Assembly (NCBI GenBank): GCA_035287065.1
Contig: DATECD010000153.1
Coordinates: forward strand, 1 to 28,166
Direction of reading: 5' to 3'
DNA: 28,166 bases
Origin: Chlamydiales bacterium
GTDB lineage: Bacteria > Chlamydiota > Chlamydiia > Chlamydiales > SM23-39
Shown: positions 9,594 through 16,663 of the stretch, in pieces
Position numbering within the stretch: position 1 is the first letter of the stretch
Layout of the letters: each line of letters begins with the position of its first letter
The notes under the pieces: model-generated
Seen by the model: only the letters and a program-made list of their open reading frames with translations
The model's database searches: none
What the model was told of the DNA's origin: nothing
Translations under genes and position numbers: made by a program

Positions 9594-12137
9594 ATGAAAC
9601 TTTTTCCCTTTTCGTTAGCACTTCTTATTGCCGTCGCTGGGATGGCTGAAAACACTCTTAAAGAAACCCCACAAGTGACTCTCAAAATGCGTCAACCCAA
9701 CTGGCGGGGCGATGTGGTGAGCATGCATCCAAATAGCAATCCGCAACAAATTATTTTTTATGAGCCTGTTGTTGGGGGTGGAGAGGTCGCTGTTAAAGAA
9801 GTTTTCTTTTATGAGAATGGGGCCCTTAAAAGTGAAGTAGACGTTATTCAAACTTCAGAAGGGACGATTTTTCATGGCGCAAAAGTTGACTTAAATGAGG
9901 AAGGGAAGCTTTTTCAAACAGCTTACTATAAAGATGGGCTTTTAGAGGGAGAGAGAAAGCAGTGGTATCCAAACGGTCAATTAGGAAGTGTTGCATATTT
10001 TGAAAAAGGGCAACTTCAAGGGGCTGCTAAAAGTTATTTTGAAAATGGGAAGCTGCGCGAAGAGGCCCATCACGATCATGGGAAGCTTGAAGGAGAGTAC
10101 ACCCTTTATTACGAAGATGGAGTGAAGGGACGTTTTTGCACATACCATCAAGGGGAAGTGCAGGGATTAGCATTTGAGTGGTACCCATCTGGTGTGTTGA
10201 GACAGCAACGTCAATTTTCTCATGGTCTTTTAAACGGCGATGGCGAAAATCCAGCGATTTTGGTCTATAACGAAGAGCGAACCCTTATTGAGGTAGCTGA
10301 TTTTCGACAAGGAATTCGATCAGGTCTGCATATCGCTTTTCACAAAAATGGACAAGAAGCTTACCGCATTTCCTATAAACATGGGAAAAAAGAGGGAAAA
10401 GAGCAGTTTTTTGATGAGAGTGGAGCGTTAATTGGGGAAGGTTCATTTTCAGAAGGAAAAGAGGTGGGAACCCACTGGAGAGATTATGCAGATGGCACTC
10501 CGATGCGAAGAGCCTATTACAATAAGAAAGGGGAACTTCTAGAGCCAATTTGTGAATATAATACAGAGGGAACTAGGGTCCGTGAATATGCACTTATTGA
10601 CGGCAAAAAAGAGGGTCCCTGTTTTGAGTGGTATCCCAATGGCAATCCAAAGATAGAACATAATTACTCTATGGATGAGTTTGAAGGGGAACAAAAAGAG
10701 TATTATGCAACGGGTCAAATTAGACTCTCTTTCAACTTTACAGACCATCGTCGAGAAGGCCCCTATCAGGAATGGTATGAAAATGGGATTCTTGCAAAGC
10801 GGGCTTTTTTCTCTGATGGGTTAAAAGAAGGGCAATTGGGAGAGTGGTATGAGAACGGAAATCCCAAAATCGATGCTTGGTTTCAAAAAGATTTAGCAGA
10901 TGGATTGCGGACAGAGTGGTACGAAAATGGCAACATACATGCCCGCATAGAGTATTCACGAGGAGCAAAGCAGGGCTGGGAGCGCGATTGGAATGAGCAA
11001 GGCACTTTAGTTTTTGAAGGTTTTTTTGAGCAGGATAAATTAGATGGGGCAGTTCTTACTTGGTGGGATACCCATCAATTGAGATCAAGACTCCATTTTG
11101 ACAATGGGAAAAAAGAGGGGAAACAGGAATGGTTCTATCAAGATGGACGGCCTGAAAAGATTGCGTGGTTTCAAAATGACCAGTTGGATGGCCAACTAAC
11201 AAGTTGGTTTCCCGATGGGACAATCGCCCTATCTCAATACTACCGCGAGGGAAAGACGATTGGGGAGGATCTTCTTTATGTTTGGAAAGGAGAAGAGGAA
11301 GAGCCTGTCTTAGTCCGCCATTTCCATTATGATGATATGGGTAAGCTCCATGGAGATCAGAAAAACTATTATGCTGATGGGACTCTTCAGATGGAAACGC
11401 ACTATGTGCATGGGGATCTAGATGGTGTAAAGCGCATTTGGAATGAGAAGGGGGATCTTACTGAAGAGGCTCACTACGCATTAGGAAAATTAGATGGATC
11501 CTTTATCCTCTATCCCGCAGATGGTCGCGAGATTGTATTTCATTACAAAGACCATTTCAAAAATGGAAAGCATTTTCTTTTTTACCCCCCGAATGCACAA
11601 AACGACAAGATCTTGGCATTAGAGGCAGATTTCAAAGATGATCGACTCGATGGAATTGCTTGCGAATATGACGAAATGGGATCCAAACGAAGAGAAACCT
11701 CTTTTGTCCAGGGGAAAAAAGAGGGGATCGCAAGAGAATACTTGCCTACTGGTAAGTTGATTCAAACGATCTCTTTCCAAAATGATCGGAAAAATGGGCT
11801 AGAGATCGAGTATTTCCCCAACGGATCTGTTTATAGGGAAACAGCTTATATCGATGATCTCAAAGAAGGAGAAGAGAGAACATACCACGAAAATGGGCAT
11901 TTAGCCTCCCTTTGCACTTACGATTCTAACTCTCTTGATGGGCTCTCTCAAAGCTGGAACTCTGAAGGAGTTTTAGTTTTTGAAGCTGAATACCAAGAGG
12001 GGAAGCGCCACGGGAAGTTTAAAAAGAATTACGACAATGGCAAACCCTACATTGAACAAACCTTCGCTTTTGATGAGCCTATTGGAAATAAACTCAAATA
12101 CGACCGCGAAGGAAAACTCATTTCTAAAAAAGATTGA
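9594..12137 (+). CDS. Exported MORN-variant repeat protein, 847 aa
   Basis: Signal peptide 'MKLFPFSLALLIAVAGMA', then a long array of about 22-24-aa repeats such as 'DGLLEGERKQWYPNGQL', 'DGLKEGQLGEWYENGNP', 'NGKKEGKQEWFYQDGRP'. Confidence 0.9.
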   Translation: MKLFPFSLALLIAVAGMAENTLKETPQVTLKMRQPNWRGDVVSMHPNSNPQQIIFYEPVVGGGEVAVKEVFFYENGALKSEVDVIQTSEGTIFHGAKVDLNEEGKLFQTAYYKDGLLEGERKQWYPNGQLGSVAYFEKGQLQGAAKSYFENGKLREEAHHDHGKLEGEYTLYYEDGVKGRFCTYHQGEVQGLAFEWYPSGVLRQQRQFSHGLLNGDGENPAILVYNEERTLIEVADFRQGIRSGLHIAFHKNGQEAYRISYKHGKKEGKEQFFDESGALIGEGSFSEGKEVGTHWRDYADGTPMRRAYYNKKGELLEPICEYNTEGTRVREYALIDGKKEGPCFEWYPNGNPKIEHNYSMDEFEGEQKEYYATGQIRLSFNFTDHRREGPYQEWYENGILAKRAFFSDGLKEGQLGEWYENGNPKIDAWFQKDLADGLRTEWYENGNIHARIEYSRGAKQGWERDWNEQGTLVFEGFFEQDKLDGAVLTWWDTHQLRSRLHFDNGKKEGKQEWFYQDGRPEKIAWFQNDQLDGQLTSWFPDGTIALSQYYREGKTIGEDLLYVWKGEEEEPVLVRHFHYDDMGKLHGDQKNYYADGTLQMETHYVHGDLDGVKRIWNEKGDLTEEAHYALGKLDGSFILYPADGREIVFHYKDHFKNGKHFLFYPPNAQNDKILALEADFKDDRLDGIACEYDEMGSKRRETSFVQGKKEGIAREYLPTGKLIQTISFQNDRKNGLEIEYFPNGSVYRETAYIDDLKEGEERTYHENGHLASLCTYDSNSLDGLSQSWNSEGVLVFEAEYQEGKRHGKFKKNYDNGKPYIEQTFAFDEPIGNKLKYDREGKLISKKD

Positions 12138-12507
12138 GTATGTCGTAACTTTCTTGGAGGCTTTGACGGACTTTTTCTTGGAAAGTGGATTTGAAAAAGA
12201 CGTAATCGGTGTTAAATGTCGATTGCACAAGGATGCTGATTCCAGCAGATCCAAGGCATTGAAGAATTGGGGCTAATACAGCTGGGGTATCAAAAGAGAT
12301 GACCCCTTCTATGTAGAAAGCATTCCAATTAGATTCTTTTTCTTCTTTCCATTTCAGGAATTTTGTTTCTGCAAGGATTGTCGTTTCTATTTCCGTTTGA
12401 GAGAGAAAAAAAGAAGAAGAGCTTCCTTGAGATAAGAAGCGAGAAAGCTCTTCTTGTGAGACTTTACAAATAGAAAAATCGGGTTGTAAAAAAATCAATT
12501 TCCGCAT
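12124..12507 (-). CDS. ACT-domain protein, CASTOR/ACT_7-like, 127 aa
   Basis: 'WNAFYIEGVISFDTPAVLAPILQCLGSAGISILVQSTFNTDYVFF' matches the pattern of the small bacterial ACT_7 family (W..l...G.l.f...Gila.i...La.agIsif.iSTf.TDyilv). Overlaps the B3/4 gene by 13 nt. Confidence 0.85.
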   Translation of the reverse strand: MRKLIFLQPDFSICKVSQEELSRFLSQGSSSSFFLSQTEIETTILAETKFLKWKEEKESNWNAFYIEGVISFDTPAVLAPILQCLGSAGISILVQSTFNTDYVFFKSTFQEKVRQSLQESYDILNLF

Positions 12508-15807: not shown

Positions 15808-16663
15808 GGGATGCGCGCAAGAGTGGGTGGTTTGGAAAATTGGCTCTGAGTAAGAGAGCGATAGGTCCAAGAAGTGCGTTCGTAGAGCCAAGAGTCATGG
15901 CTCTTGCTCCGATACCAGAACAAAATAGCGATCTTAGCCCTTCTATTTTTACAATATTTCGGACTACTTGCGTAACTGAGCGATCAGCGCCTATGCTCCC
16001 TTGCATTCGTGTTTTGACCAGATCAAAACTATTTGTCATGGATCCAGAGACAAAACCAGAAATTGTGTAGCTAAGACACTCTTTCGCAATTTCAGTGATC
16101 TCATTTTTTGGGAGATCAACTGCACGATCGAGTTCTTTTCTTATAATTCTTGAAAGCCCAAAGAAACATGTCGAAGTCCCCATCTCTCGCGCAATTGTTG
16201 GAGTGAGACCTTTAAATGCCCATTTCACCCCTTCTTTTTTCCACAGATGCATTGCAATCCCAAAAGAATTGAGAACCTTTTGGCTTGCAGGATCTTTAAA
16301 GCTTTTTTGTTTCAAGATCATCACTCTTTCGCAAGGGGTTAAAGGGAAAGCTGCGACAAATCCTGAAAAAGCGCCACCTAGGCACTTCTCTGTATCTGAC
16401 CCAGATCGTCCATTTAAAATGGTTTGAGAGAAGAAGTGGTTTGCATAGAAGTTGGTGATTTGGCAAGTCATGTCGCAAACCAGATTGATCGGGTACCCTC
16501 GATAAAGAGATTTCACGCTCATTTCGGGCGGGTGTCCTCCAGGGGATTGCCGATAGGTTTTGTAAGTAAAAAAGGGTTGCGTAATGGAAATGTTGCAGAA
16601 ACTTGCAATTCCGCCATTTAGCATTGCTCCTAGAGAAGTCAGGTCGTTAATTTCGGTTGTCAT
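15797..16663 (-). CDS. Mitochondrial carrier family (SLC25-like) protein A, 288 aa
   Basis: Start moved to ATG 16663 (GAGG SD upstream). Three-fold repeat with carrier signatures 'QPFFTYKTYRQ...LYRG', 'TPCERVMILKQ...KEGVKWAFKGLTPTIARE', 'NSFDLVKTRMQ...IEGLRSLFCSG'. Confidence 0.92.
   Translation of the reverse strand: MTTEINDLTSLGAMLNGGIASFCNISITQPFFTYKTYRQSPGGHPPEMSVKSLYRGYPINLVCDMTCQITNFYANHFFSQTILNGRSGSDTEKCLGGAFSGFVAAFPLTPCERVMILKQKSFKDPASQKVLNSFGIAMHLWKKEGVKWAFKGLTPTIAREMGTSTCFFGLSRIIRKELDRAVDLPKNEITEIAKECLSYTISGFVSGSMTNSFDLVKTRMQGSIGADRSVTQVVRNIVKIEGLRSLFCSGIGARAMTLGSTNALLGPIALLLRANFPNHPLLRASHDE

Follow-up and report, generated by a model that had tools for sequence, protein, structure and literature searches.

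A recurrent six-gene cassette of Chlamydiota joins a pair of mitochondrial carrier-family proteins to a predicted amino acid oxygenase, an exporter, a CtdA-family homologue and an ACT_7 protein

The window considered here is the whole of contig DATECD010000153.1 (28,166 nucleotides, or 28.2 kb), which belongs to a 1.39-Mb metagenome-assembled genome (MAG) of a Chlamydiales bacterium (assembly GCA_035287065.1; 80% complete, ~6x coverage). On its minus strand, between positions 12124 and 16663, six intact open reading frames (ORFs) are found head to tail. Two encode members of the mitochondrial carrier family, termed carriers A and B, and the others an Fe(II)/2-oxoglutarate oxygenase, a LysE-family exporter, a B3/4 protein related to CtdA and a small ACT_7 protein. 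At least seven other assemblies contain this gene set. With a probability of about one half, the six genes constitute one conserved cassette that handles an oxidized free basic amino acid, with provision for self-protection and export. The genes, the adjacent intergenic region and the divergent permease gene are as follows.

15797..16663, minus strand: carrier A, mitochondrial carrier family, 288 amino acids (Pfam Mito_carr, E 2.1e-25)
15007..15807, minus strand: carrier B, mitochondrial carrier family, paralogue of A, 266 amino acids (Mito_carr, E 3.3e-19)
14050..14997, minus strand: Fe(II)/2-oxoglutarate oxygenase, PF10014 (IDO/BsmA type), 315 amino acids (2OG-Fe_Oxy_2, E 2e-24)
13416..14027, minus strand: LysE-family exporter, basic amino acid (LysE/ArgO) branch, 203 amino acids (Pfam LysE, E 5.1e-29)
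12495..13406, minus strand: stand-alone B3/4 protein, CtdA-family homologue of Thr type, 303 amino acids (B3_4, E 9.6e-16)
12124..12507, minus strand: small ACT_7 protein, homologous to half of CASTOR1, 127 amino acids (ACT_7, E 4.4e-12)
16664..16783, no strand: intergenic region separating the divergent genes of carrier A and the APC permease, probable cassette promoter region, 120 bp (from ORF coordinates)
16784..18184, plus strand: APC-family permease, glutamate/GABA-antiporter-like branch, possible cassette partner, 466 amino acids (AA_permease_2, E 2.8e-69)

The successive junctions from carrier A to ACT_7 are an 11-nt overlap, gaps of 9, 22 and 9 nt, and a 13-nt overlap, and the Pfam matches of all six proteins exceed the gathering scores. 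The original prediction, made from the sequence alone, described six co-oriented genes with these junctions and families, and the ORFs and Pfam matches confirm it. The longest ORFs of the carriers begin with TTG and reach positions 15891 (B) and 16789 (A); the ATG starts given above agree in alignment with the N-termini of the orthologues. The permease encoded by the divergent gene scores 443 bits with the NCBIfam GadC-type model, below the cut-off of 650. An APC gene also adjoins the cassette in three other loci (L010, L020 and L172; loci and genomes are numbered with the prefixes L and G), and the arrangement in L010 is that of the window.

The predicted association of the genes is borne out in other Chlamydiota genomes. 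All assemblies that carry the gene set are Chlamydiota where they are labelled; they come from different samples and three GTDB families and display two gene orders. The loci compared are the contigs that encode the closest oxygenase homologues, with 38–51% identity.

L010: carriers A and B, oxygenase, LysE and B3/4, then the contig end
L016/L133: all six genes in the window order
L135: all six genes in the window order
L012/L134: the cassette without LysE
L011 and L177: in the order carrier B, oxygenase, (LysE), B3/4, ACT_7, carrier A
L174: reduced, with the oxygenase, an unknown gene and one A-like carrier

The flanks differ at every locus (KdpD, TopA-SWIB, ArgRS, GerE and others), and the TopA-SWIB fusion that adjoins one of the cassettes is a chlamydial one. 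The pair of carriers is kept in six of the seven other carrier-linked loci, L174 being the one that shows a single A-like carrier. Among 401 sampled genomes of the phylum, the oxygenase family is found in seven, belonging to three families, and carriers are adjacent to it in four of these.

The cassette is not a single invention but consists of nested modules. This is seen when 80 oxygenase loci of reference genomes are mapped with iterated hidden Markov models. The innermost layer, oxygenase with ACT_7 and LysE, is present in free-living bacteria (Azotobacter vinelandii, Paenibacillus faecalis, Phytohalomonas, Glaciimonas) and in a Helicobacter. The second layer, in which B3/4 is added to this core, is found in gammaproteobacterial and chlamydial MAGs, and the third, with the carriers, only in chlamydial loci. 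In the maximum-likelihood tree, oxygenases linked to ACT_7, LysE, B3/4 or carriers form one starred clade of 38 of the 74 rows, and those linked to carriers are monophyletic with support of 100/98. The trees of the oxygenase and of the carriers agree on one carrier-linked clade. The nesting runs from a widespread core to B3/4 and then to the carriers in one chlamydial branch.

The window sequence itself is found at 99% or more in groundwater and soil metagenomes (four runs from three studies), and most of the cassette gene junctions are bridged by Logan contigs. These contigs break at 12846-12900, 14044-14089 and 14514-14640, where loose ends of related sequence are present, and contigs of three runs depart from the window at 12846, 14626, 14869 and 16305. 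The shared departure points indicate that a second, related sequence in the same samples holds parts of the cassette.

At the protein level, the oxygenase matches Pfam 2OG-Fe_Oxy_2 with 86.8 bits against a cut-off of 23.1. The iron triad His-x-Asp...His (H223, D225 and H280) and R296, at the position of the 2-oxoglutarate-binding Arg, are invariant in sets of 23 and 74 homologues. The AlphaFold2 model has a pLDDT of 87, and its top Foldseek matches are BelL, HrmJ, IDO, Mpe_A2762 and TqaL, with E values from 1e-15 to 1e-9. BelL, HrmJ, IDO and TqaL act on free amino acids, the substrate of BelL and HrmJ being a lysine-derived one. The Pfam match and the fold neighbours therefore uphold the earlier placement of this enzyme in a family that acts on free amino acids. 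Enzymes of PF10014 include hydroxylases of isoleucine, leucine and threonine (PMC3684760), as well as GlbB, a lysine 4-hydroxylase (PMC9951290). By its family and its intact active site, the window enzyme is predicted to oxidize, and most probably hydroxylates, a free amino acid. A clade-specific acidic pocket residue was not found in carrier- or B3/4-linked oxygenases relative to sister clades, from which they differ only at positions 62, 204, 227, 270 and 272. An orthologue of GlbB, sought at L077 and L074, was not recognizable from the ORF layout, and the protein atlas returned only family-level labels. Residues 1–20 of the oxygenase (window 14893-14997) have low model confidence and are poorly conserved among homologues.

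The B3/4 protein matches Pfam B3_4 with 58 bits. Its family profile (alignment A2) finds the CtdA structures 9mkl and 9f7e with E values of 3.9e-24 and 6.7e-22, and PheRS editing domains at only 1e-7. In CtdA, Asn105 and Gly116 are functionally important, and the strictly conserved Cys166 sets activity and specificity (PMC12449066). Both proteins are of the stand-alone B3/4 fold; N132 and G143, which align with CtdA N105 and G116, are invariant in alignment A2. The window protein differs from CtdA in having Thr (T197) for Cys166 and Asp (D204) for Gln173, and it is ~70 residues longer, with insertions. Thr at the Cys166 position is found in the window and in every B3/4 protein of a LysE/ACT_7 cluster, and Cys is kept in the stand-alone chlamydial, LysRS-fused and Pseudoalteromonas rubra homologues. 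At the sequence level, the window protein is accordingly a member of a distinct Thr-type branch of the CtdA family. As the specificity Cys is replaced by a conserved Thr, the ligand is presumably not canavanine. Thus, the relation to CtdA that was proposed earlier stands (profile E 4e-24), and the canavanine role does not transfer. Homology and the conserved catalytic-type residues point to a tRNA deacylase, and the tRNA on which it would act is likewise a prediction. A further difference from CtdA, which guards against plant canavanine, is that the window protein has beside it the gene of an oxygenase, an enzyme that might supply its substrate within the cell.

A related arrangement is found elsewhere in the phylum, where ~33 genomes encode a LysRS of ~780 amino acids with an N-terminal CtdA-like B3/4 domain that keeps Cys at the Cys166 position (for example, L170:1601-3937, plus strand, and L171:1277-3655, plus strand). 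The C-terminal part of these fusions matches solved LysRS structures with an E value of 1e-176. It is possible that the fused domain acts as a cis-editing domain on this class II LysRS.

The exporter has the Pfam LysE domain over its full length, as do ArgO and LysE. Its best NCBIfam models are those of the L-lysine exporter (TIGR00948, 124.4 bits, cut-off 213.65) and ArgO (NF006801, 97.6 bits, cut-off 298), and both scores are far above those for RhtB and LeuE. The scores lie far below the two equivalog cut-offs, and the window protein therefore forms a separate branch. The earlier assignment holds for the LysE family and its Lys/Arg branch, and the name ArgO cannot be carried over.

The ACT_7 protein matches its Pfam family with 46 bits, and the family profile (A3) finds CASTOR1 with an E value of 1e-21 and the bacterial protein Atu0741 (1zhv) with 7e-20. 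Residues S91 and D101, invariant in 15 homologues, align with Ser111 and Asp304 of CASTOR1. In CASTOR1 the side chains of these residues touch arginine at its alpha-amino and guanidinium groups, and their mutation abolishes binding; CASTOR1 binds arginine, and not lysine or ornithine (PMC5020642). The proposed similarity to CASTOR1 is borne out in the form of a half-homologue that keeps both residues. ACT_7 domains are common to the window protein, CASTOR1 and the bacterial proteins of the Atu0741/VC0802 type. Compared with CASTOR1, the window protein is half the size, matches one half only and has two ACT-like units rather than four, so that it would need to dimerize. CASTOR1 binds GATOR2, a partner that is not expected in bacteria.

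The carriers score 88.7 (A) and 68.9 (B) bits with Mito_carr, for which the cut-off is 22.3; the genome search gives four repeat matches, and the three-repeat layout of the family is visible in the alignments. They are ~20% identical to each other. Assignments to A or B were made with a tree together with A-only and B-only models, and the two types are separate clades, each starred with a support of 99. Identity to their nearest eukaryotic matches does not exceed 28% (with E values no better than 1.9e-7 for carrier A), and relatives of bacterial type are found in no organisms other than intracellular bacteria. When positions are numbered from the [KR]G motif, following the ADP/ATP carrier, both window carriers have R-E at the H4 (G+7/+8) position. 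The cassette carriers in general have R-[DE] there, and the thiamine-linked chlamydial carriers R-Q. We take this position to be contact point II and R-[DE] to denote the amino acid class under the Robinson–Kunji rule. The signature P-x-[DE]-x-x-[KR] is not present in full on H1, H3 and H5 of either carrier. In carrier A, H1 is without the acid, H3 is without the base and H5 is intact. In A as well as in B, hydrophobic residues stand in place of both the acid of H1 and the base of H3, such that one salt bridge is lost and two are kept. Since the orthologues share the H1 and H3 changes, these point to a divergent subfamily and not to decay, except in the window copy of B.

Bacterial mitochondrial carriers are reported only for Legionella, Neorickettsia and Babela in the papers found (PMC3252375, PMC4378268). 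Like these, the window carriers are carrier-family proteins of intracellular bacteria. They differ from LncP of Legionella pneumophila in being paired and embedded in a metabolic operon, in having an amino acid-type (R-[DE]) rather than a nucleotide-type site, and in the removal of one matrix salt bridge by paired substitutions. Within the phylum, Mito_carr genes are present in 106 of 400 sampled genomes and 80 of 211 genera.

Many of these genes are operonic, often beside genes of cytoplasmic enzymes. The operon at L137-L139 contains a thiamin pyrophosphokinase (TPK), two carriers, a transketolase and a TauD enzyme, and that at L143 and L154 has the order TauD, carrier, unknown, PAP2, carrier and pyridoxal phosphate enzyme. 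An adenosine-deaminase/TPK fusion adjoins a carrier among L137, L138, L139, L140, L143 and L154 (genomes G211, G177, G126, G325, G192 and G349). Such chlamydial operons suggest uptake of cofactors or metabolites by SLC25-type proteins in bacteria. A minor idea, prompted by the Fe/2-oxoglutarate enzymes (TauD and PF10014) beside chlamydial carriers, is that one of the carriers imports 2-oxoglutarate. It is disfavoured, as the cassette carriers have R-[DE] and not a keto acid-type site, and the genome has a SodiT-type dicarboxylate transporter.

Cassettes without carriers are often accompanied by ordinary permeases (Trp_Tyr_perm, ABC and APC). Together, these permeases and the metabolic carrier operons favour a role in a bacterial membrane, and the odds are slightly better than even that the carriers work in the inner membrane of the bacterium itself rather than in host mitochondria. 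The original prediction had the carriers possibly acting across host mitochondrial membranes; nothing was found in support of this site, and the operon contexts across the phylum speak for the bacterial one.

With respect to the substrate, variant loci are the most informative. ArgRS is encoded directly upstream of the cassette in L011, and arginase-family genes follow the triad of LysE, B3/4 and ACT_7 in L015 and L063. In L172:3241-14021 (minus strand; genome G199, of the same family as the window), the triad, with a Thr-type B3/4, lies in an arginine deiminase-type operon. The order there is NAD synthase, APC permease, a 543-amino acid DDAH/ADI-like protein, the triad, an unknown 378-amino acid protein, arginine deiminase and an amino acid kinase-family (carbamate kinase-like) protein; PF10014 and carrier genes are absent from the locus. 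In L144:2845-12274 (genome G374), an FA_desaturase-family protein replaces PF10014 beside LysE, a B3/4–ankyrin fusion of Cys type, carrier A and an Na/Ala symporter, and the divergent genes encode carrier B, an aminotransferase and an ornithine cyclodeaminase-like protein. Links to arginine or ornithine enzymes are thus seen at five loci and a lysine-specific neighbour near none of the triads, which favours an arginine-type substrate. The CASTOR1 residues in ACT_7, the placement of LysE in the Lys/Arg branch and the R-[DE] carrier sites point in the same direction, and the substrate is most likely arginine or a close analogue. The earlier proposal of a module for a probably basic amino acid gains from the arginine enzymes of the variant loci. 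It requires modification in that the modules are nested, and the substrate, product and direction of the pathway are deductions.

A different assemblage is found in Pseudoalteromonas rubra S2599 (L053:6453-12599), where genes for a YbaK-type tRNA_edit protein, the oxygenase, ACT_7, a Cys-type CtdA-like protein, an ATP-grasp ligase and an MFS transporter occur together. The locus resembles a biosynthetic cluster of dipeptide type that includes two trans-editing factors. P. rubra is a cultivable organism suited to experiments.

A sequence of events can be proposed for the cassette. The PF10014 oxygenase would oxidize, most probably by hydroxylation, a free amino acid in the bacterial cytoplasm. 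The non-proteinogenic product might then be mischarged by an aminoacyl-tRNA synthetase, and B3/4 would hydrolyse the mischarged tRNA. The LysE/ArgO-branch exporter would expel the compound, and ACT_7, probably as a dimer, would bind the amino acid or analogue and tune one of its partners. Carriers A and B, added in one chlamydial lineage, would move the substrate, the product or both. Perhaps the carriers are genuine chlamydial inner-membrane transporters of SLC25 type, and the pair feeds a pathway from arginine to a translation-poisoning analogue, with immunity provided by the Thr-type deacylase, the LysE pump and the CASTOR-like sensor. This fuller version is tentative, and we regard it as appreciably less probable than not.

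The closest precedents are the IDO operon of Bacillus thuringiensis and the Hil operon of Pantoea ananatis, in which a PF10014 oxygenase gene is also found beside an amino acid exporter (PMC3684760). These operons yield a non-proteinogenic amino acid to which the role of an antimetabolite or signal has been ascribed, and export has been proposed as a means of self-protection (PMC3684760). The window cassette differs in that its exporter is of the LysE/ArgO type and not RhtA or MFS, and in that it has no reductase and no second dioxygenase. It adds a predicted tRNA deacylase, a CASTOR-like ACT protein and two mitochondrial carriers. The window oxygenase clade is 13–15% identical to IDO by Foldseek, and its substrate is probably basic rather than branched-chain. 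By analogy with these operons and with the P. rubra locus, deliberate production of an antimetabolite or signal with self-protection appears somewhat more likely than detoxification.

A number of observations weigh against the interpretation of the cassette as a producer of an arginine-derived compound with carriers in the bacterial membrane. At the level of the cassette itself, decay may be under way in the lineage or genus of the window. Window carrier B has lost the H1 Lys and the H5 Asp and Lys that its orthologues keep and has no complete motif. In addition, the sister species G001 (L009, G001:C28) has no Mito_carr gene and has a broken oxygenase, lacking the first ~65 residues and frameshifted, followed by LysE and B3/4. 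With regard to the carriers, LncP, the only bacterial member studied, is secreted into the host (PMC3252375), and the genome under study encodes a type III export gate (FHIPEP). The contact-point rule and the AAC1 register serve here as a lead only. We know of no demonstration that mitochondrial carrier proteins insert natively into a bacterial membrane. With regard to the substrate, which is deduced from gene neighbourhood, the ArgRS adjacency is a single case, and the Ser and Asp of ACT_7 may be family-wide rather than arginine-specific. In L172 a DDAH-like enzyme of degradative type takes the place of the oxygenase in a catabolic operon, which fits detoxification equally well. Lastly, there are pointers to lysine: the LysRS-fused CtdA-like domains in ~33 genomes, the higher score of the LysE model relative to that of ArgO, and the presence of a lysine 4-hydroxylase among known PF10014 enzymes (PMC9951290).

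These points can be assembled into alternative explanations. In one, the cassette serves detoxification or salvage, with the oxygenase destroying or demethylating arginine analogues that arrive with host arginine (methylarginines, homoarginine, or plant or amoebal antimetabolites), B3/4 clearing mischarged tRNA, LysE expelling what remains, and the carriers and permease importing the arginine pool. The L172 operon, where the triad accompanies a DDAH/ADI-like hydrolase, arginine deiminase and a carbamate kinase-like gene, is a catabolic set and is in keeping with this, as are the arginase-family genes in L015 and L063 and the frequency of uptake permeases among the neighbours. CtdA itself defends against an exogenous analogue (PMC10018355, PMC12449066). 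An Fe/2-oxoglutarate dioxygenase that demethylates a guanidino compound is also described (PMC12508155). Against this, the free-living core of oxygenase, ACT_7 and LysE and the P. rubra locus look biosynthetic, like IDO/Hil; the characterized PF10014 enzymes encountered all build natural-product precursors; and an analogue that is destroyed needs no exporter. Detoxification is considered doubtful. The substrate might instead be lysine, with a GlbB-like lysine or ornithine hydroxylase, a true LysE and a B3/4 that edits tRNA-Lys. The precedent of GlbB, the lysine-derived substrate of the closest fold matches, BelL and HrmJ, the LysE model score and the LysRS fusions all agree with this proposal. 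It is quite unlikely when set against the five loci with arginine or ornithine enzymes and the lack of a lysine-specific enzyme near the triads. ACT_7, moreover, keeps the contact residues of CASTOR1, a protein that discriminates against lysine and ornithine, and the LysRS-fused domains are of Cys type and fall into a score tier further removed than that of the Thr-type proteins in the cassette.

The location of the carriers raises another question. If A and B were secreted by a type III system into the host mitochondrial inner membrane, the other four genes acting within the bacterium, they might draw off a host amino acid or let the bacterial product into mitochondria. LncP provides the precedent of a secreted bacterial mitochondrial carrier (PMC3252375), and the FHIPEP export gate is consistent with a type III system. 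Eukaryote-like ankyrin, SET and LRR proteins are encoded among the neighbouring genes, and the relatives of bacterial type that the carriers have are confined to intracellular bacteria. A host mitochondrial location, taken alone, has odds somewhat below even. The complete scenario is unlikely, given that the carrier genes are inherited together with that of a cytoplasmic enzyme, the oxygenase, and are tightly coupled to it (A/B overlaps of 4 to 11 nt, then a gap of 9 nt). Related chlamydial carrier genes are flanked by those of thiamin pyrophosphokinase and transketolase, a setting in which import into the bacterium is metabolically sensible, and their presence in more than a hundred of the sampled genomes suits housekeeping transport. 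Finally, the six genes could be chance neighbours or the product of a chimeric metagenome assembly, for which one might cite the ~6x coverage of the MAG, the Logan breaks with related loose ends and uninformative promoter and terminator scans. The same gene content in seven other assemblies, from different samples and in two orders, and the congruence of the oxygenase and carrier trees make this extremely improbable; it is effectively refuted by the recurrence. The preferred interpretation thus remains that of a cassette that oxidizes a basic amino acid, most likely arginine or an analogue, and protects the cell from the product.

In literature searches that covered hydroxyarginine, PF10014, CtdA and bacterial mitochondrial carriers, neither the cassette nor a Thr-type CtdA branch nor chlamydial carrier operons were found described; the original prediction likewise knew of no system with this composition. 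Taken singly, the parts belong to familiar types, and there are precedents for combining a modified amino acid with an exporter and immunity; the component with the potential to be categorically new is the pair of carriers. If the proposed role is correct, the cassette would exemplify a gene cluster for a modified amino acid in which immunity is conferred by a tRNA proofreading factor encoded within it. The Thr type would represent a second specificity class of the CtdA family, one whose substrate is endogenous and not of plant origin. Bacterial homologues of CASTOR1 would be placed in a defined genetic context in which the ligand can be found, and the oxygenase may serve as a biocatalyst that hydroxylates basic amino acids. 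Mitochondrial carriers are regarded as a eukaryotic signature, and the handful of bacterial exceptions are read as secreted effectors. Their presence in about one-quarter of the sampled Chlamydiota genomes, repeatedly in metabolic operons, makes a function in the bacterial membrane testable, and the question of the membrane bears on nutrient parasitism and on the origin of the carrier family. If both the arginine antimetabolite and the bacterial location of the carriers proved true, the antimetabolite system would be a new one and the SLC25 fold would have a second setting outside mitochondria.

At the DNA sequence level, promoter and terminator scans of the cassette region are at chance level. 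One sigma-70-like match is present in the 120-bp intergenic region (16719-16690, minus strand), the number of matches being that expected from shuffled sequence. A search of sequencing runs with the window sequence found no RNA runs that contain this stretch. Base composition gives no sign of recent transfer, as the G+C content of the cassette genes (0.39–0.44) is that of the remaining window.

The rest of the contig encodes type II secretion proteins, glycosyltransferases and DnaB. The type II secretion set (secretin, GspE, GspF and two pseudopilins) occupies positions 3604-9552 on the plus strand. It is followed by the gene of an 847-amino acid MORN-repeat protein with a signal peptide-like start (9594-12137, plus strand). 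This gene is convergent with that of ACT_7, and its stop overlaps the ACT_7 end by 14 nt.

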